Below, one piece after another: positions 3,213-64,000 of a stretch of 64,000 nucleotides of DNA. The notes beneath the pieces are model-generated. The model had not been told where the DNA came from. It did not search any database and saw only the letters and a program-made list of their open reading frames with translations. The stretch comes from Candidatus Adlerbacteria bacterium (GTDB taxonomy: Bacteria; Patescibacteriota; Minisyncoccia; Phycocordibacterales; SBAW01). Position 1 is the first letter of the stretch, and every line of letters starts with the position of its first letter. Where the stretch lies: the NCBI GenBank assembly GCA_029288895.1, contig JARIGK010000002.1, positions 94,986 to 158,985 on the forward strand, given 5' to 3'. The translations under genes were made by a program, and so were the position numbers.

Positions 3213-4469
3213 CTACTTTCTGTACTTCTCAAGGAAGCCGTCTTTAAACTGGTCGAACTGGTCGTTTAAGATCGCTTCGCGGATTTGCTTGCAGAGGTTC
3301 GTGAGGAAGAAGATGTTGTGCATCGAGGCCAAGATGGGGCCGAGCATTTCGTGCGTGCGGAAGAGATGGTGCACGTAGGCGCGCGTGTGATTTTTACATA
3401 CTGGACACGCACACCCTTCGTCCAACGGCCCATAATCATATTGATACTGCGCATTAGGAATTTGGATCTTCCCTTCTGATGTGTACAAACCTCCCGTGCG
3501 GCCGTTGCGAGTTGGAGTAACACAATCGAAGGTGTCGACACCGTGCGCAGCACCCAACAAAATATCTTCCGGCTCGCCCACACCCAAACCGTGGACTGGC
3601 ATGCCAGCTGGAAGTTCTTTTAACATTTCGAGTGCCGACTGCAACGAATTGCCGCCGTATTTGCGGCTAAAGGAGCCTCCCAACCCAAACCCATCAAAGC
3701 CCATCTCGCCAATAGTGCGAGCGCTTTCCTTTCGTAAATCATCAAACTGCCCGCCTTGGCCGATGCCATAGATACCTTGCGTTTTGTTTGCTTCAAAATT
3801 TTGACGATGCGCTTGCAATGAACGCTTTGCCCATGCATGCGTGCGCTCCATCGCCTCCTTTTGCTCTTCGTAAGAATCAGTTGGCGCCGTGCATTGATCG
3901 AATGCGAAGAAAATGTCGGCACCCAAACGATGCTGGATCTCAACAGAACGCTCAGGCGTAAAGCGATGGAGTGAACCATCCAAGTGGGATGTAAATGTTA
4001 CGCCTTCGTCATCTACTATTGCGAGCTTGCCATGGGAGGTTGCCAGTTCTTCGTCGTAGAACGCAGGAGAAAAACTCTCAGCGGAAGGGCGAGGTATATC
4101 TCCCTGAAGCGGAAAGTTTTTCTCCGCAGATGTAAACTTAGAAACTTTCTTGCCAAAGCCAGTGCCGAGAGAAAACACTTGGAAGCCGCCCGAATCGGTA
4201 ATCGTCGGGCCATTCCAATTCATAAACTTTGCCAACCCCCCGGCTTTTTCGACGGCATCCAAGCCAGACAAATAAAGATGGTACGTGTTTGAGATATATG
4301 TCTGGATACCAAGCCAGTCGAACTTGGCAGACTCTATGCCTTTAATGTCGGCCTTGGTTGCCACTGGCACAAACGCTGGCGTTTGAATATCACCATGCGG
4401 CGTATGCAAAACCCCGGCGCGCGCACCGCCGGGGAGTTGTTTTACGATTTCAAGACGTACAGGTTGCAC
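3213..4469 (-). CDS. tgt: Queuine tRNA-ribosyltransferase (418 aa, with about 35-aa internal insertion)
   Basis: DSGGFQ, FDQCT, LGGS motifs and zinc motif CxCxxC...H near C-terminus; insertion between FSLG and IVDDEGVTF corresponds to a palindromic repeat element. Confidence 0.9.
   Translation of the reverse strand: MQPVRLEIVKQLPGGARAGVLHTPHGDIQTPAFVPVATKADIKGIESAKFDWLGIQTYISNTYHLYLSGLDAVEKAGGLAKFMNWNGPTITDSGGFQVFSLGTGFGKKVSKFTSAEKNFPLQGDIPRPSAESFSPAFYDEELATSHGKLAIVDDEGVTFTSHLDGSLHRFTPERSVEIQHRLGADIFFAFDQCTAPTDSYEEQKEAMERTHAWAKRSLQAHRQNFEANKTQGIYGIGQGGQFDDLRKESARTIGEMGFDGFGLGGSFSRKYGGNSLQSALEMLKELPAGMPVHGLGVGEPEDILLGAAHGVDTFDCVTPTRNGRTGGLYTSEGKIQIPNAQYQYDYGPLDEGCACPVCKNHTRAYVHHLFRTHEMLGPILASMHNIFFLTNLCKQIREAILNDQFDQFKDGFLEKYRK
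4063..4129. repeat. Palindromic RPE-like mini-element copy 1 (about 67 bp, 14-bp terminal inverted repeats) inserted in-frame in tgt
   Basis: TIRs gcaggagaaaaact / agtttttctccgcag; 25-nt core cagggagatatacctcgcccttccg (tgt coding strand) identical to the copy at 29984..30008. Confidence 0.7.
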
Positions 4470-29119: not shown

Positions 29120-30040
29120 TCACCAACCGCCTGATGCACCTCCGCCGCCCGAGCGGCCGCCGCCAAAACCGCCGAACCCGCCACCGCGGCCGCCGCCCAT
29201 TCCACCACCGCCTATCCACCACGGCGGGCGCGTACCGTTTTGTTTTGAATTGGCGTATGCGTTTGAAACGACATAGTCAAAAAGGAGACCAAGCACGATA
29301 AGCCCAAGGAAACTGACCCCGCCCCACAATGCCGCGAGTGCAAAGTACCACCAGACACCCGCGCCAATGACGCCCCCAACAACACCACCCGCCCACCACG
29401 ATCGGCTTCGCGCCAATATTGCAGCAATCCACTGTAGTGCAATAAAAAGCGCGAAGAATATGCCCGCGTAGTCTTTAGGATTTGCATCAACAGTGCCCGT
29501 GCCCGTATATTCGTTTTCCGTTGCACGTTCAATATCTTGGACCGCTGCTGTGACACCTGCGTCATAGTGCCCTGCTTTAAATGCTGGGGTGATGTCATTA
29601 TTTATGATGCGCTGTGCCACACTGTCGGGCAGCGCGCCTTCGAGCCCGTAGCCTACTTCGATACGTACGGCGTGGTCCTGCATCGAGATAAGGAGCAGCA
29701 CACCGTTGTCGCGATTTTTCTGGCCAATACCCCACGTTTTGAATAACTCTTCTGCGTAGTGTTCGACATAATCGCCACCCATGTCTGGCACGATAGCGAC
29801 TGCGATTTGGTTTGATGTCGACGCTTCAAATTGCGAAAGTTCTGCGTCCAATTGCTGCACTACCTGCGGCTGCAGCGTGTGTGCGAAATCGTTTACATAC
29901 CCAGTCGCACTCCCTGGTGCTGTAAAGGCAAAAACAGGAGCCGCAAAAAGAAACAGAAGGGCTGCGCAAAAACCTCCCCACTCCAGGGAGATATACCTCG
30001 CCCTTCCGTGGGGAGTTTTTGCTGTAGCCCCGAACTTCAT
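29120..30040 (-). CDS. TPM-domain protein (YgcG-like) with Gly-rich C-terminal tail
   Basis: TPM domain YVNDFAHTLQ...QIAVAIVPDMGG...GVLLLISMQDHAVRIEVGYGLEG; TM; GGGGMGGGRGGGFGG tail; N-terminal region contains palindromic element copy 2. Confidence 0.7.
   Translation of the reverse strand: MKFGATAKTPHGRARYISLEWGGFCAALLFLFAAPVFAFTAPGSATGYVNDFAHTLQPQVVQQLDAELSQFEASTSNQIAVAIVPDMGGDYVEHYAEELFKTWGIGQKNRDNGVLLLISMQDHAVRIEVGYGLEGALPDSVAQRIINNDITPAFKAGHYDAGVTAAVQDIERATENEYTGTGTVDANPKDYAGIFFALFIALQWIAAILARSRSWWAGGVVGGVIGAGVWWYFALAALWGGVSFLGLIVLGLLFDYVVSNAYANSKQNGTRPPWWIGGGGMGGGRGGGFGGFGGGRSGGGGASGGW
29966..30022. repeat. Palindromic RPE-like mini-element copy 2 (about 57 bp, 15-bp TIRs) inside the 5' coding region of the TPM-domain gene
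   Basis: TIRs gcaaaaacctcccca / tggggagtttttgc; core cagggagatatacctcgcccttccg identical to the tgt copy. Confidence 0.7.
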
Positions 30041-30044
30041 ACGT

Positions 30045-30620
30045 TTAGAGGTTGACCGTCGGAGGAGTTTCCGCGCCGGCCTGGGCCTGGAACATCGTGC
30101 GCGCATGGAAGCCAAACATCTTGGCGATGATATTGCCTGGGAAGGTCTGCACGCCCGCGTTGTACGACGCGACCATGTCGTTGTAGCGCATACGTTCGAC
30201 TGCGATGCGGTTTTCTGTACCAGAAAGTTCGGCCATCAAGCTCTGCACCGTGTCGACAGATTTAAGCTGCGGATAGTTTTCCATCACAACAAGCAAACGA
30301 GAAAGCGACGATTCGACATTGCTTGCAGCCGCTGCCTGCGCATCTGGCGTTGTGGCACCCGCATACTGCGTGCGTGCTTGTGCAATAGCGTCAAAGACGG
30401 CTTGCTCTTGCTTCATTGCACCTTTGACCGAGTTTACGAGATTCGGAATAAGGTCAAAACGGCGCTGGTACTGCGACTGCACCTGTGCCCACTGCGCATC
30501 GACTGCAATGTTGCTCTTTACCAAGCTGTTATATTTTGCCCAGCCAAAGAGGACAACCAAAACGGCAATGATAATAAGGACCACCGGCCACGTAAGCCAC
30601 TTTCTAAATGAGTTTTCCAT
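30045..30620 (-). CDS. LemA family protein
   Basis: N-terminal TM plus LemA domain (NSLVKSNIAVDAQWAQVQSQYQRRFDLIPNLV...MENYPQLKS...RMRYND). Confidence 0.85.
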   Translation of the reverse strand: MENSFRKWLTWPVVLIIIAVLVVLFGWAKYNSLVKSNIAVDAQWAQVQSQYQRRFDLIPNLVNSVKGAMKQEQAVFDAIAQARTQYAGATTPDAQAAAASNVESSLSRLLVVMENYPQLKSVDTVQSLMAELSGTENRIAVERMRYNDMVASYNAGVQTFPGNIIAKMFGFHARTMFQAQAGAETPPTVNL

Positions 30621-32430: not shown

Positions 32431-33594
32431 TTAGTAGCGCGGAGGCGGCGGAGGCATCATGCCCGGGCCCCCTTGGCCGCTGTGCCCACCTGTTGGTTTT
32501 GGCTCGTGCGATGTGCCGCGGTAGCAACTCACCGAATATGGGAAGTCGTACGTCAGCACGTAGTGATATGTCGTGACTTGTTTGCCATCAAGTTCGATGG
32601 TACTCGTGAGGCCGTGGCATTCGTCCAAGTCGGCTGACGTTAGATACTTCCCTGCCGACACTTCGGGCCCCGTGATTGGGAAGCCGTCGAACGCGTAGCC
32701 AATGGTTTGTGTGACCATCGGCGATGTAAAACATGCGCTCAAGTTGTGATAGTGGTAGCCCTCTTCATTGTTCGGGTGGCCGTCGCAGCTATCTTGCTCT
32801 TCGTGTGCAGGTGCGTCTCGGTAGAGCGCATCAAATGCATCATTTAAGGTGACGCCGTTTGTCATAATGCCAACCTCGCCGTAGATACAATCAGGTGTCG
32901 ACGCAATGCTGGGGTACGCCGGCAATGAGTAATTATTATTTTGTGCGGTGATAGAGCTTTGATTGCGGTCGTACTGCGATGCCGGGTCGCTTGTCTGCAC
33001 CGGGAAGGTGCCGGTGTTGTGATTGGTCGGCAGATCATTACTTGCAATGCTGCGCGTGCCGTTTGCCACCGAAACTTTCATCGATGCGTTTGGCCACGGC
33101 ACACTCCCCTGCACGTGTACTTTTGTTGTTGCATCCCACGTAGCGCCGTGGATCCACGGGCCGTTTACTTGGGCACCTTGGCCGCCCGATGCAACGTGGC
33201 ACACATACACGTACCCCTTCTTTGCGCCCGAAGTCGTGTACTTGCTGTCGCCAAGCGGAAGCTGTGTCAGATCGACCGGACCTGCCATCGCGACAAGCTC
33301 GGCGTTGGTGTACACGTGGCCATACGTTGTTGCTGATGATGTCTGCGCAGATGTTGTGTTTGCCTGCACAGAAGTTGTGTTTACCTGCGCAGAGCTTTCC
33401 GATCGGCTTCCTGTCGGAACCGCGGAGAAGCTCTGCTCCGGCGTCACATTTGTCGCGGATGCCGAAGCCCCTCCATCGGTAACGCTACTTTCTATTACAT
33501 TAGTTCGCGGTGGCTGATGAAAATGGAAGAAGCCAAACAACAGCAACCCTGCGCCCACGACAATGCCGCCCGCCATTTGGAAAATATTCATGCC
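32431..33594 (-). CDS. Secreted YHYH-domain protein
   Basis: EGYHYH and YHYVLTYDFPYSVSCYRG motifs of the YHYH family; N-terminal TM/signal, Ser/Thr-rich linker, Pro-rich C-terminus. Confidence 0.7.
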   Translation of the reverse strand, partial: GMNIFQMAGGIVVGAGLLLFGFFHFHQPPRTNVIESSVTDGGASASATNVTPEQSFSAVPTGSRSESSAQVNTTSVQANTTSAQTSSATTYGHVYTNAELVAMAGPVDLTQLPLGDSKYTTSGAKKGYVYVCHVASGGQGAQVNGPWIHGATWDATTKVHVQGSVPWPNASMKVSVANGTRSIASNDLPTNHNTGTFPVQTSDPASQYDRNQSSITAQNNNYSLPAYPSIASTPDCIYGEVGIMTNGVTLNDAFDALYRDAPAHEEQDSCDGHPNNEEGYHYHNLSACFTSPMVTQTIGYAFDGFPITGPEVSAGKYLTSADLDECHGLTSTIELDGKQVTTYHYVLTYDFPYSVSCYRGTSHEPKPTGGHSGQGGPGMMPPPPPRY

Positions 33595-33637
33595 TCTATT
33601 GTACCCAAAAGAAAAAGCCCCTCGAGAGGGGCTTGTG

Positions 33638-34333
33638 TTAGCTCTGTGGGAAAAGATTTTTCTCTCCCGATGGAATTGCAATACTTTGCACGAAGTTTAG
33701 AAGCTTGGCCTGTATCGCAGCTTGGTCGCTCGAGGTAAATTCTTGTATCGTGCCCGCTGGGTAGTTAGCAAACTGTGTCTGCCCTACGCGTGTTTCAAAC
33801 TCGTAACACGTCGAGTTGCTGCGCACGTACAAACGATAGAGCGAACCCTGCGCCATATGCCCGGCACCCGCGTCGCCGACATTGCCAAAGACAGATGACG
33901 AGTATGCGTCCGCACTGCGCTGTGATGTCGGCACGGTCTTCGCATCAAAGCCCGAGGGCGGCGTGTTCAAACACGTGCGTTCGGTCGAGAGGTCAGCGCG
34001 TTTTTGGATACGCACACCAGCACTCTCAAAATTGGTGCCTTTATAATCGCCGCCGTTGTAATAGAGGCAGTAGGTAAAGCCTTCGCTGCATGGCGGGATG
34101 TATGAGTGTACGAGCACCTGCGCTTTGTTTGTTGCCAAACCAAAGTCGGCGGGTTTTGCAAACGTTATCGTGCCATCGGACGTGGTGTCCCCCATGTTGG
34201 TGGTGGTAGCGACAGTTCCGCCAGGGTTACCCGGCACAGCAGGAGCCTGCGTGTATTTTGCACCAATAAAAAGGAGTACAACCGCAATCGCCACAACAAG
34301 CACAATAAGCCCGTTACGAGTGTTGGTATTCAT
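33638..34333 (-). CDS. Hypothetical secreted protein
   Basis: N-terminal signal/anchor MNTNTRNGLIVLVVAIAVVLLFIGA; no recognised domain. Confidence 0.45.
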   Translation of the reverse strand: MNTNTRNGLIVLVVAIAVVLLFIGAKYTQAPAVPGNPGGTVATTTNMGDTTSDGTITFAKPADFGLATNKAQVLVHSYIPPCSEGFTYCLYYNGGDYKGTNFESAGVRIQKRADLSTERTCLNTPPSGFDAKTVPTSQRSADAYSSSVFGNVGDAGAGHMAQGSLYRLYVRSNSTCYEFETRVGQTQFANYPAGTIQEFTSSDQAAIQAKLLNFVQSIAIPSGEKNLFPQS

Positions 34334-54463: not shown

Positions 54464-55069
54464 TTAGCCCAAATGCGCGTGATCGTTCCAGGTGAGCAGT
54501 TTCCACGCACCATCATATTCGAGTACCGTTATACCTGTGTTTGAAGTCATTATATTGTTCATTGCGCGCTCTTCCTGCTCCCACGTTGCTGAATCACCAA
54601 ACAAAACAGCAAGCACCATATGGCGCAAGAAGCGTCCGTGAGTTACAACAACGATAGAATCTTCGGGCTGCTCTGCAATATATGCGAGTGCCTGTTTTGC
54701 ACGCGCATGTAGCATCGCCGGGGTTTCTTCATCTTCGTACTGCCAATCGCGATTGCGCTTAACTAGATAGTCTTGAACAATTTCTTCTTTGTACTGAATT
54801 CCAATAAAAGAGGTTGGATATTTAGCTTCTGCAAATAAAGGAGAGAAGCGCGGTTCGTGCCCTGTGCGTTCTGCAATCTTTTCTGCAGTTTGCTTTGCAC
54901 GAAGCATATCGCTCGAAAGCAAAAGATCGAATTGAACACGCGTAAGGCGGTCTGCAATCATTCCTGCTTGCTCTATGCCCTTTTCAGCCAACGCATCAGC
55001 GCCGTCTTGCACGCGGCTTTCTATATTAAATTTGGTCAGCCCGTGCCGGACAAAATAAACTTTTTTCAT
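54464..55069 (-). CDS. Histidine phosphatase family protein (phosphoglycerate mutase-like)
   Basis: Catalytic RHG (YFVRHGLT), second His in VVVTHGRF. Confidence 0.8.
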   Translation of the reverse strand: MKKVYFVRHGLTKFNIESRVQDGADALAEKGIEQAGMIADRLTRVQFDLLLSSDMLRAKQTAEKIAERTGHEPRFSPLFAEAKYPTSFIGIQYKEEIVQDYLVKRNRDWQYEDEETPAMLHARAKQALAYIAEQPEDSIVVVTHGRFLRHMVLAVLFGDSATWEQEERAMNNIMTSNTGITVLEYDGAWKLLTWNDHAHLG

Positions 55070-56175
55070 AGAGAGAAGTTGCTTGGGTCGAAGCTGTTTT
55101 CGTCAGCTTCTTTTTCTTCTTTACTGCGATCGTCCAAAATTTCTGCCGGTTTTTCGTCAGGTACTACTTCTGCAGGGGTTACTGCTTCTGTAGCAGGAAT
55201 AAGCTCGGTCGAAACGTTGGGTGACGAAGGCGAAATATCGGCTGTAGGGGGTTTGCTGAGCGACGGCGAAGCAACTTCAGCTGATTCGGCAGCAGTCGAA
55301 TCAGCGTACCCGGAGGACGATGATTTCGCCGTAGTTTTGCCCTGTGCGATGCGGCTTGCGAGAGCGGCGAAGAGAACGCGAAGGTCATCTTCGCTCATAA
55401 AGTCTATAGAAAGTTTGCCGCCGTGTTCTTTTGGCTCGATTGCCACGCGAGTACCAAGCGCCTGCGTCAATTCGCTTTCCATCTCCAAAATCTCGGGCGA
55501 ATAGATATATTCTTTCTTGCGCACGCGGTCAAACGCGATGCGGCGCGCGATCGACTCCGTGTCGCGCACTGTGAGGCGCTTGAGCATGATCTCGCGGAAG
55601 AGCACGCCCTGCTCTTGCGGCCTGTCTGCAAGCATCAAGAGCGGGCGTGTGTGGCCTTCGGCGATTTTGCCGTCTGCCAACGCGTCCTGCATGTCTTTGG
55701 GCAACATCAAAAGGCGCAACGTGTTCGAAACATACTCGCGGCTCTTGCCCACTTTTTGTGCAACTTCTATATGCTTAAATCCGAACTCGTTTACCAAGCG
55801 GGCAAACGCATGCGCGCGGTCCATTGGGTTTAGGTCTTCGCGCTGGAGGTTTTCGATGATAGCGACTTCTAGCTTTGTTTTGTCGTCATCGTAGTCGGCG
55901 CGGATAATAACCGGCACTTGCGCGACGCCCGCCAAGCGCGACGCGCGCAAACGGCGCTCGCCCGCTATCAATTCATATTCGGTACCAATACCGCCGTCGG
56001 ATTTCTCGAATTCTTTGCGCGTAACGGTCAGCGGCTGGATGACACCGTACTGGCGGATGGACTTTGCCAAGTCCTCGAGCTTGGCTTGGTCGAACTCGCG
56101 GCGGGGTTGGTACGGGTTTGGCTTAATTTTGTCGACTTCGACCCAGAAGATAGCGTTGTTGAAAAATTCTGACAT
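55066..56175 (-). CDS. parB: ParB/Spo0J-like partition protein with low-complexity Ser/Pro/acidic C-terminal tail
   Basis: ParB box (GVIQPLTVTR, ELIAGERRLRASRLAG), HTH; start trimmed to MSEFFNNAIF at 56175 because the longer ORF runs through tRNA-Leu. Confidence 0.85.
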   Translation of the reverse strand: MSEFFNNAIFWVEVDKIKPNPYQPRREFDQAKLEDLAKSIRQYGVIQPLTVTRKEFEKSDGGIGTEYELIAGERRLRASRLAGVAQVPVIIRADYDDDKTKLEVAIIENLQREDLNPMDRAHAFARLVNEFGFKHIEVAQKVGKSREYVSNTLRLLMLPKDMQDALADGKIAEGHTRPLLMLADRPQEQGVLFREIMLKRLTVRDTESIARRIAFDRVRKKEYIYSPEILEMESELTQALGTRVAIEPKEHGGKLSIDFMSEDDLRVLFAALASRIAQGKTTAKSSSSGYADSTAAESAEVASPSLSKPPTADISPSSPNVSTELIPATEAVTPAEVVPDEKPAEILDDRSKEEKEADENSFDPSNFSL

Positions 56176-56220
56176 TGACGATATTCTAGCATAGCTAGAC
56201 AAACGTTCGAAAAATCGTAA

Positions 56221-56301
56221 GCCGGAGTGGCGTAATGGTAGCCGCGCACGACTCAAAATCGTGTCCCGCAAGGGGTGAGAGTTCGAGTCTCTCCTCCGGC
56301 A
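56221..56301 (+). tRNA. tRNA-Leu (anticodon CAA), type II with long variable arm
   Basis: Acceptor GCCGGAG/CTCCGGC, anticodon loop CTCAAAA, variable arm TCCCGCAAGGGGTGAGA, T-arm GAGAG-TTCGAGT-CTCTC, discriminator A. Confidence 0.85.
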
Positions 56302-56371
56302 CAAAGTTTCCTGTAGCCTATTTTTATAGTAAGGTCTCCCTAGTTGAACATTTAACCCAAGGAGACGTCCG

Positions 56372-57112
56372 ATGGCTACAAAGCCACAGCTTATTCTCGC
56401 GTACGATCGCAGCACGTTTAACCCCGAAGATATTCGGCTGCTCAAGAATCTTGTGCCCATGGTCGACATGGTTAAACTCGGCTTCGAAGCAATGAGTGCC
56501 GAGGAACCTCTTGAAGGTGGGGCGTGTTCAGTGGCGTATCTTGTTCGCGATTTCCTCCACGATAGGGATGAGTTCGATTCCCCTATCCCAATCATGTGGG
56601 ACGCGAAACTCAACGACGTCTACAAGACCGTGTCTCGTACGCTGCCAAATATCATCCGGAGCGACGTTCATTTCGTCACGCTGCATGCAAACATGAGTGA
56701 GGCAACCCTTCGCCGCGCAGTCGAAATCTGCAAAGGTACAAGGACGAGACCTGTGGCAGTGACCCTCCTGAGCGATATGACGGAGGCCGACACTGCAATG
56801 TGTTTCGATGCAAGCACAAAAGATGCAACATTGAGATTCGCCTGCAGAGCGCGGATGTGCGGTTTTGAACATATCGTATGTTCGGCCCAAGAGCTTGAAT
56901 ATCTACGTGACGGCAGAGCTATCGAAGAGTTCAAGCTTATCGTGGTCGGCATTCGCCACAAAATGCCCGCCCACGGCCAAGTACGTATTGCCACCCCTCG
57001 GGAGGCAGCTCGCCTTGGCGCTGATTACATTGTGCTTGGTACTGAAGTGACGGGCGCCTCCGATCCGCTCTCAGCACTGAAAGCGATACATGAAGATCTT
57101 GAAAATCTATAG
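56372..57112 (+). CDS. pyrF: Orotidine 5'-phosphate decarboxylase family protein
   Basis: LILAYD, VKLGFEA, WDAKLNDV (D-x-K-x-x-D), C-terminal ADYIVLG; followed by terminator agcgctccc-ttcg-ggggcgct + T-run (57113..57145). Confidence 0.7.
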   Translation: MATKPQLILAYDRSTFNPEDIRLLKNLVPMVDMVKLGFEAMSAEEPLEGGACSVAYLVRDFLHDRDEFDSPIPIMWDAKLNDVYKTVSRTLPNIIRSDVHFVTLHANMSEATLRRAVEICKGTRTRPVAVTLLSDMTEADTAMCFDASTKDATLRFACRARMCGFEHIVCSAQELEYLRDGRAIEEFKLIVVGIRHKMPAHGQVRIATPREAARLGADYIVLGTEVTGASDPLSALKAIHEDLENL

Positions 57113-63140: not shown

Positions 63141-63320
63141 TATAATCGGCATATTACCTTAAAACATAACGTTTTGGGAGTATCTTCAGAATCAGCAATA
63201 GTATTTAACAATAATTAGGTTTAATTAGTTTTTATCACTTTTTGGGCAACCCGTGGGCAACCATGGGCATTATTACCAAAGAGCAGTACAGGCAAAAGTG
63301 ATAGATTGAAAAAGTCGCTC

Positions 63321-64000
63321 CTAATTCAGAGCGGCTTTTTGTATGATGCGAACGTATCCGGCATCTGCATCCACTTCAATCTCATCACCGTCTTTCAAGA
63401 TTTGTGTAGCGGTCTTGGTCCCAATTACGCAGGGCTTTTTCATCTCACGCGCGACGATAGCGGCATGGGACATGATTCCTCCTTCGTCTGTCACAACTGC
63501 AACTGCTTTTTGCATGGCCGGCACATAGTCTGGGTCTGTTATGACACTTACAAGAATTTCTCCTTCTTGAAGCAAGGATACGTCGGCTTTGCGCGTTATA
63601 ACCCGTACCTTTCCTTTTGCATACCCTTTGTATCCAGTCGAACCTTTGATTTCACTAGCGTTCGTATCAACTGATTCAAGTCTAAGACCTTTGCTTCGCA
63701 GATTTTCATTAAGTTCAGGAAGTGGAATCAGTGTTTCGTCCAGTAATGCACATCCTTCTTGAGCCCTCTTCTCCAAGGCGGCAAGGAAGTCTGGCGATGC
63801 TCCCTTTTCTAGCGCCAAAATATCTTCAGTAAGGACGTGGTGTGATAAATGCACATATTGCGGGAAGAGTCTCTCAAAAGATTCAGTGAGCATATTTGCA
63901 GTCTTGTCAGTGTATTCCTGTGTCTTCTCACGAACTCGGTTCATACCGTCGAAGAATTCTTTATCTATATCGGCATGGTTGGGTAGGCGGAAATACACAG
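63321..64000 (-). CDS. PEP-utilising enzyme family protein, C-terminal part (gene continues beyond window end)
   Basis: Phosphohistidine mobile domain GGIMSHAAIVAREMKKPCVIGT near C-terminus; ORF is open to the window edge. Confidence 0.65.
   Translation of the reverse strand, partial: VYFRLPNHADIDKEFFDGMNRVREKTQEYTDKTANMLTESFERLFPQYVHLSHHVLTEDILALEKGASPDFLAALEKRAQEGCALLDETLIPLPELNENLRSKGLRLESVDTNASEIKGSTGYKGYAKGKVRVITRKADVSLLQEGEILVSVITDPDYVPAMQKAVAVVTDEGGIMSHAAIVAREMKKPCVIGTKTATQILKDGDEIEVDADAGYVRIIQKAALN

Follow-up and report, generated by a model that had tools for sequence, protein, structure and literature searches.

How does a strong palindrome come to lie in frame within the gene of a conserved enzyme, leaving its catalytic residues in place? 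The question is raised by a stretch of 64,000 nucleotides from a Candidatus Adlerbacteria bacterium (GCA_029288895.1, contig JARIGK010000002.1, positions 94,986 to 158,985; hereafter the window), in which hairpins sharing a 25-nt core lie within two genes, tgt, for a queuine tRNA-ribosyltransferase, and a gene for a TPM-domain protein. A first-pass annotation, made from the sequence, had seen in them a mini-element like the Rickettsia palindromic elements (RPE). To our knowledge, selfish palindromes lying in frame in essential genes are a textbook matter for Rickettsia only; to meet them also in Patescibacteria, which are streamlined and uncultivated, indicates that the phenomenon recurs in reduced genomes, and accounts for some of the odd lineage-specific insertions in proteins of the candidate phyla radiation (CPR). 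The hairpin, which we call family A, proves to be real, dispersed and hence mobile, but low-copy. Probably it is a small hairpin element (~56 nt) of Adlerbacteria-like Patescibacteria, non-autonomous and spreading by copy-and-paste, akin to RPE and to MITEs (miniature transposable elements with inverted repeats), that persists in sites able to tolerate it.

Two copies of one hairpin in two genes

The core, CAGGGAGATATACCTCGCCCTTCCG, has two exact matches in the window, at 4082-4106 on the minus strand and 29984-30008 on the plus strand, and no other at up to three mismatches; none is expected by chance (100 shuffles). Each is flanked by an inverted repeat, that of copy 1 being recovered in an inverted-repeat search, and in both cases the hairpin around the core spans 67-72 nt. 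Copy 1 (4062-4128, minus strand) folds with -32.4 kcal/mol on the mRNA strand (z -6.1) and copy 2 (29959-30030, plus strand) with -44.8 kcal/mol (z -7.3); when all 64 kb were folded in a 70-nt sliding frame, the TPM copy ranked as the most stable structure and the tgt copy among the top ten. The two can be aligned from end to end, from an A5 to a T5 tract, which gives an element of ~56 nt made up, in order, of A5, a 13-bp outer helix, a 3x3 internal loop, an inner helix of 6 bp (4 bp and 2 bp, with one A.G mismatch), a UAUACC loop and T5. R1, a covariance model built from these two copies and the three described below, matches at 4068-4123 (81.3 bits) and 29967-30022 (81.1 bits), with E about 1e-22 for both, and its scan of the window returned nothing else convincing. 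The repeated palindrome first proposed is thus confirmed, and its two copies are homologous on proper alignment; as for the terminal inverted repeats, initially put at 14-15 bp, the 13-bp outer helix is common to all copies and the remainder is copy-specific extension.

The first host, tgt (3213..4469, minus strand), encodes a protein of 418 aa with PF01702 homologues at E values down to 1e-289 and a match to Zymomonas mobilis TGT in the PDB at 3.5e-90. Its open reading frame (ORF) runs uninterrupted across copy 1, which reads as EKNFPLQGDIPRPSAESFS at codons 116-134; the predicted Tgt peptide across it would include NFPLQGDIPRPSAESFSPAFYDEELATSHGK. In alignment with the Z. mobilis enzyme, window residues 104-152 stand in place of only four (113-116), and about 18 of the additional residues, hydrophilic and slightly acidic, are due to the element. 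The zinc and catalytic motifs are intact, as had been claimed: the catalytic aspartates D92 and D315, equivalent to Z. mobilis D102 and D280, are retained and invariant in the alignment, as are the zinc ligands C353, C355, C358 and H384. An AlphaFold2 model built with 33 homologues has good confidence as a whole (predicted template modelling score, pTM, 0.83) but gives residues 95-147 a predicted local distance difference test score (pLDDT) of <50, and so places the insert within a predicted disordered excursion. The insertion is also lineage-specific: among the 120 best Tgt homologues its motif QGDIP occurs in one, P0001, which is identical to the window protein, and the insertion is not seen there in unrelated phyla.

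The second host (29120..30040, minus strand; start ATG 30038-30040) encodes a protein of 306 aa with PF04536 homologues, and lies directly downstream of lemA (30045..30620, minus strand), whose stop is 4 nt before the TPM ATG. Copy 2, which has the opposite orientation relative to its host gene from that of copy 1, leaves the ORF uninterrupted and reads as AKTPHGRARYISLEWGGFC at codons 7-25. A public record, P0121, holds the identical protein of 306 aa with the same start. The LemA-TPM gene pair is kept in three related loci (L012, L016, L017), with the TPM ATG 1-4 nt past the lemA stop, and from the element to the hydrophobic core of the protein there is no in-frame ATG, GTG or TTG. Because the start after the lemA stop is conserved and no alternative follows the element, translation of the copy within the n-region of the signal peptide is the likeliest outcome, as had been suggested; we infer translation for the Tgt copy likewise. 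The ~19 residues added are rich in K, R and H and carry a net positive charge. Their motif RARYIS occurs, among the 120 best TPM homologues, only in P0121; the closest orthologue (P0122, from L012) has a plain signal peptide of 21 residues directly after the lemA stop. At its other end (29120-29230) the protein carries a glycine-rich tail (GGGGMGGGRGGGFGGFGGGRSGGGGASGGW) past its transmembrane segments.

Copies beyond the window and the pattern of their conservation

Scanning one genome per species (185,579 species) for the exact core revealed three further sites, all in Patescibacteria: two in Candidatus Adlerbacteria RIFOXYC1_FULL_48_26 (L001, L003) and one in the metagenome-assembled genome (MAG) JAIEMM01 (L002). 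At L001 the element is in frame (KTSPLQGDIPRPSAESFS) in the gene of a 301-aa RlmK/RlmI-like S-adenosylmethionine-dependent methyltransferase, where, by comparison with PDB 2igt, there are 13 extra residues right before motif I. At L002 it is in frame (QNSPLQGDIPRPSAESFV) in the helical linker of polynucleotide phosphorylase (PNPase). The copy at L003 is intergenic, in the 78-nt spacer between the Hsp20 stop and a convergent tRNA-Phe gene, where a bidirectional terminator is expected. An exact-core scan of JGI metagenomes re-found only the L001 and L003 sites, in independent assemblies. Other searches added none: the 18-nt tip had no match among IMG/VR viral sequences; R1, run with filters off over ~270 kb of related loci, gave no new family A copy, its weak matches being ordinary A5-stem-T5 hairpins; a search of 5.8 billion proteins with concatenated six-frame peptides gave seven word-sharing candidates, none at E <=10; and a 35-aa peptide of the window that includes KTSPLQGDIPRPS, run through HMMER against 1.84 billion representatives, returned only four unrelated repeat proteins. 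The element has no Rfam family by gathering-threshold or E-value scans, which found only three tRNAs in the window, and the literature searched held no paper linking palindromic elements or MITEs with Patescibacteria, nor any prior report of this one.

Five distinct sites are therefore recorded, four of them intragenic and in frame (Tgt, TPM, methyltransferase, PNPase) and one intergenic, with two copies in the window, two in the RIFOXYC1 genome and one in JAIEMM01. The sites are non-orthologous and lie in at least three species-level genomes, so that dispersal is evident; the notion of a genome-wide family that remodels proteins is not borne out by two copies in the window and three sites elsewhere. 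The same data bear on the idea that no dispersed element exists, the palindromes having been made locally by template switching or fold-back repair, or by faulty assembly. The Tgt loop does vary greatly, and of the long-loop orthologues with examined DNA most have a palindrome there; moreover, the window copies come from a single assembly, and P0001 and P0121 are singletons. Local events would nevertheless have had to produce an identical 24-nt core and similar stems in five unrelated contexts in three genomes while preserving the host reading frames, and both RIFOXYC1-type sites, L001 and L003, turned up again in three independent assemblies. We consider this explanation scarcely credible.

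Over the whole element the five copies share 78-95% identity, unevenly distributed: the 24-nt tip is the same in all five, and outside it identity falls to 61-90%. In the outer helix, double compensatory changes are seen in 5 of 13 pairs, and 93.7% of cells are paired, against 45-59% when the partners are slid. The scans selected for an intact tip, which accounts for part of that identity; yet were tip and stems to change at equal rates, copies so selected should have near-identical stems as well, and the stems differ. What is constrained is thus the sequence of the tip, but of the stem only the pairing.

Such a pattern might be expected of a host cis-regulatory hairpin, acting as DNA or RNA (a protein-binding site, an attenuator or a terminator) and recruited at several genes, with mobility incidental. 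Even where the codons of three different host genes would permit synonymous change the core does not vary, while the stems covary. The A5-stem-T5 frame resembles that of bidirectional terminators native to the window genome, such as the one at 63307-63342, and the L003 copy, between Hsp20 and the convergent tRNA-Phe, occupies the very place of an expected terminator. Inserts can, besides, be more conserved than their host gene: in the Tgt loops of L008 and L015, occupied by another hairpin family, the insert is 93% identical and the gene as a whole 76%. Against regulation, orientation relative to the mRNA is not constant, the element in TPM being read antisense to its other coding copies, with loops that are purine-rich instead of pyrimidine-rich; the sites are non-orthologous from one genome to another; to terminate at codon 134 of 418 would be costly in tgt; and Rfam offers no match. 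Of the features of an intrinsic terminator, a stem followed by T5 is present on both strands and a position at a gene end in the L003 copy only; a simple terminator scanner flagged only sub-hairpins, the element's loop being above its limit. A regulatory origin seems to us unlikely.

As to the age of the copies, their identity of 78-95% may be set beside the 72-80% found for tgt DNA between the genomes compared. The tgt copy of the window agrees at 95% with the L001 copy of another species and at only 85% with the TPM copy of its own genome. Taken together, these values imply that the insertions are younger than speciation and have not been homogenised within the genome.

The window holds other hairpins too. 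That at 63307-63342 (TGAAAAAGTCGCT..AGCGGCTTTTTGT) is an ordinary A5-stem-T5 hairpin near a tRNA gene, and the native terminators of the window genome have the same A/T-tract frame as the family A element. At 33386-33436, within a low-complexity linker (PEQSFSAVPTGSRSESSAQ) encoded by ORF 32431-33681 (minus strand), there is a strong hairpin (-32 kcal/mol in a 70-nt frame) with a weak R1 match of 12.8 bits, conceivably a further hairpin inserted in frame. Within a ParB-like ORF (55066-56613, minus strand), at 55601-55650, there is a long and almost perfect hairpin (GCACGCCCTGCTCTTG..CAAGAGCGGGCGTG).

Landing sites shared with other hairpin families

The loop of Tgt is occupied by more than one kind of hairpin. 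Among homologues, the stretch from KF to HGKLA falls into two length classes, of 20-22 residues in about 40% and of 23-60 in the rest; the shorter form, exemplified by L013 (KFSGEVSPEEAVSVFDEDL), is the base state. When the loop DNA of related loci was folded, hairpins of other sequence were found in L007 (z -4.4), L015 (z -3.6), L008 (z -3.1) and L014 (z -2.6); that of L009 is palindromic by eye but without support from its z-score (-0.1), and the short loop of L013 is not a hairpin (z -0.2). Five Tgt homologues (P0043, P0052, P0077, P0085, P0113) share a loop peptide, LRRDE, which, judging from back-translation, could be encoded by a palindrome like TTCGTCGCGACGAA; this would point to one more hairpin family at this site.

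Three of these other families can be defined. Family B is found in the Tgt loop of L014 (1332-1394) and at the TPM N-terminus of L016 (8512-8576), the two being identical at 55 of 64 positions (E 9e-9) and translated in different frames; a third copy (L009 1771-1836) lies in an intergenic spacer of an ABC-transporter operon, and the family has the sequence pattern AGAGCCTKCGC..AACTTTTTGATCGG..CGAACCGCAARAAAGTTT..CTTCGGCATC. Family C is that of the Tgt loops of L008 and L015. Family D likewise occupies a Tgt loop (L009 10373-10444) and a TPM N-terminus (L017 2014-2085), on the same contig of GCA_035548815.1; its two copies, ~27 kb apart, inverted and 86-87% identical over 69-87 nt, mirror the arrangement of the family A pair in the window, which is inverted and 26 kb apart. 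Families C and D are related, C looking in sequence like D carrying an extra hairpin at its apex. A D-like hairpin is present in frame in the gene of the tRNA-dihydrouridine synthase Dus (L016 393-438), where it codes SKKSSDLLASHGQTFSQ, and the peptide motif of this insert, KSSDLL..HGQTF, recurs in the Tgt loop of P0007. Similarity of family A to B, C and D is not significant (P 0.11-0.23), and a likeness of the A core to the core in L009 was accordingly dropped. Empty sites exist as well: the short-loop Tgt of L013 and ~40% of homologues, and the TPM protein with a 21-aa signal peptide in L012.

That the same Tgt and TPM sites are filled by other families elsewhere indicates that they are targeted or pre-occupied, not hit at random. 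It also replaces the earlier picture of two independent insertions with a richer one, in which several hairpin families share landing pads, used time and again, in the Tgt loop and at the TPM N-terminus.

The paired occupation of two sites by one family, 26-27 kb apart and inverted, in two genomes (family A in the window, family D in GCA_035548815.1) could also be read as two ancient hairpins kept alike within each genome by ectopic gene conversion, in concerted evolution. The identities given above run the other way, the two window copies being less alike than the window tgt copy and the L001 copy of another species. In addition, family A is present elsewhere in unrelated genes; A and D show no significant similarity (P 0.23) though their host genes are 77% identical; and no hairpin occupies the TPM site of L012 nor, probably, that of the L008 genome. 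Concerted evolution is thus, in our estimation, quite improbable. An invertible 26-kb segment bounded by the inverted copies was also considered and rejected: crossover would be expected to join tgt and TPM tail-to-tail.

The flanks of the element carry further information. The 10 nt outside A5 and T5 are unrelated between copies (22-27% identity) but complementary within each: their scores add up to 27, where the null gives 13.9 +/- 2.9, and none of 5000 random draws reaches 27. At tgt these flanks (GCGGAG / CTCCTGCG) code residues common to orthologues (..AE / SPA..), and therefore belong to the site and not to the element. Proceeding outward from the apex we thus meet an identical tip, similar stems and self-complementary, site-specific flanks. 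Such layering is consistent with the element having entered an older hairpin at its apex, or with template switching having lengthened the palindrome afterwards; a plain MITE would be a misfit.

These observations can be assembled into a mechanism for family A as a mobile element, the reading we think probable. A mobilising factor would recognise the apical 24-26 nt sequence-specifically and require of the outer helix only that it pair. Given that the tip is constrained in sequence and the stem in pairing, recognition would be of a folded single strand, and the likeliest substrate would be single-stranded DNA at the replication fork, on the model of HUH/Y1-type enzymes or of template switching driven by hairpins. 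Landing appears not to be random, since each copy has flanks that form an inverted repeat of their own and, in relatives, the Tgt and TPM sites hold other families; most likely the element enters pre-existing hairpins, or replaces their interior. New copies would survive only at harmless sites, filtered by the tolerance of the protein: at terminator positions between convergent genes, or in frame within disordered loops, linkers and signal-peptide n-regions. In-frame survival is possible because the core is free of stops in all six frames.

Several points weigh against such an element. The identity of the tip is partly a matter of ascertainment, the scans having required the exact core, and degenerate copies could be present in further genomes. 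Template switching within quasipalindromes can yield compensatory changes in stems without selection. Translation through the element is a prediction from the reading frames. No mobilising gene was found, nor a Y1 transposase in the 64-kb window, and the RAYT-like genes (for REP-associated tyrosine transposases, REP being repetitive extragenic palindromic sequences) of relatives are flanked by a different palindrome. A target-site duplication is not definable without the exact pre-insertion allele, and there is no consistent direct repeat beside the five copies. Finally, the copy number is very low for a selfish repeat.

A gene for such a transposase was met in L007 (11256-11934), inserted between tgt and uvrB. 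Its product is a RAYT-like Y1 protein of 208 aa, whose best NCBIfam match, to NF047646 (REP-associated tyrosine transposase), reaches 41.7 bits where the cutoff is 80. On either side of the gene lie 21-nt palindromes, GAGTAAGGTYSRACCTTMCTC, with a third copy in frame inside the transposase gene itself. L013 also has a Y1_Tnp gene, and such Y1/HUH proteins are the candidates for the mobilising enzyme. A link of Y1/RAYT proteins to family A was considered and set aside: no Y1 gene is present in the window, and the palindromes of the RAYT-like genes in relatives differ and are absent from the window.

A more far-reaching possibility, to which we give tentative and rather doubtful standing, is that families A, B, C and D form a guild of hairpin cassettes without genes of their own, carried by Adlerbacteria-like Patescibacteria and homing to the apices of hairpins already present. 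Landing pads fixed in housekeeping genes (the Tgt loop, the TPM n-region, Dus, PNPase and the methyltransferase) would be re-filled time after time, or the hairpins nested from the inside out, so that the youngest, identical sequence would be at the tip and older, site-specific stems outside; the driver would be template switching or repair without a transposase, or a hairpin-specific enzyme. If so, surface loops of conserved proteins would be continuously rewritten by hairpin-into-hairpin mobility.

The shared landing sites and palindromic flanks provide a testable handle on how hairpin DNA moves and how disordered loops of enzymes grow. For annotation of MAGs there is a practical side: elements of this kind inflate loop lengths, extend predicted N-termini and confuse the calling of gene starts.

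Comparison with known palindromic elements

Some familiar classes of repeat can be set aside. An attC site has RYYYAAC...GTTRRRY boxes and belongs to cassette arrays; of this only AAC...GTT fits here, with A/T runs as neighbours, and the family A copies are solitary, intragenic and without an Rfam match. The attC reading, like those of dif-like sites, CRISPR repeats and DNA uptake sequences, was ruled out on architecture and copy number.

Insertion sequences (IS) that target REP palindromes, IS1397 among others (PMC1525189) and ISPpu9 (PMC12288879), offer a precedent for mobile DNA landing inside palindromes, as the flanks and re-used sites suggest here. Those, however, are full IS with transposase genes, whereas family A is a gene-less hairpin of 56 nt.

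REPs are palindromes of 20-40 nt with a GTAG or CGTC tag at one end (PMC3733652); they are extragenic, present in more than 100 copies, and flank a single-copy RAYT gene (PMC2817692, PMC3333891, PMC3116915, PMC3733652). Family A has in common with REPs, and with REPIN hairpins, a short, imperfect palindrome, probably recognised as a hairpin, that combines a conserved recognition part with a helix conserved only in structure; and genes resembling those of the RAYTs, the mobilisers of REP and REPIN, exist in related genomes. It differs in having only five sites, four of them intragenic, in having neither GTAG nor CGTC within its 56-nt consensus, and in lacking linkage to RAYT, the RAYT-like gene of L007 being flanked by GAGTAAGGTCGAACCTTACTC and not by family A.

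Parallels are found also among MITEs and terminator-like repeats, such as the pneumococcal SPRITE, and ERIC and Correia, which have intragenic copies (PMC10969869). These at times are translated as in-frame fusions and at times serve as terminators, and copies of family A may do likewise. Like them, family A is non-autonomous and hairpin-forming, and its 13-bp outer helix provides the terminal inverted repeats by which a MITE is known. It lies at the very bottom of the MITE size range, and no parent IS carrying the family A core turned up in the genome, metagenome and viral scans.

There remains the analogy first drawn, with RPE. The account of Ogata et al. (2000, 2002) given in PMC10969869 describes these as ~100-150 bp long, in ten families, with 44 occurrences in Rickettsia conorii. 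In both systems dispersed palindromes lie in frame, without disruption, in unrelated housekeeping genes of a small, reduced genome, with intergenic copies too, and the peptide is added where the protein fold tolerates insertion. The likeness holds by analogy and not in size, copy number or lineage: family A is 56 nt long and not ~150 bp, is recorded at five sites in public data, belongs to Patescibacteria, an unrelated phylum, and is built differently, with a terminator-like A5/T5 frame, self-complementary flanks and an invariant tip on covarying stems. The distinction from RPE is drawn on these descriptive features. On that footing family A, as an unusual in-frame palindromic mini-element, presumably unrelated to RPE in sequence, much shorter and with a strictly conserved tip, could represent a new variant of mobility.

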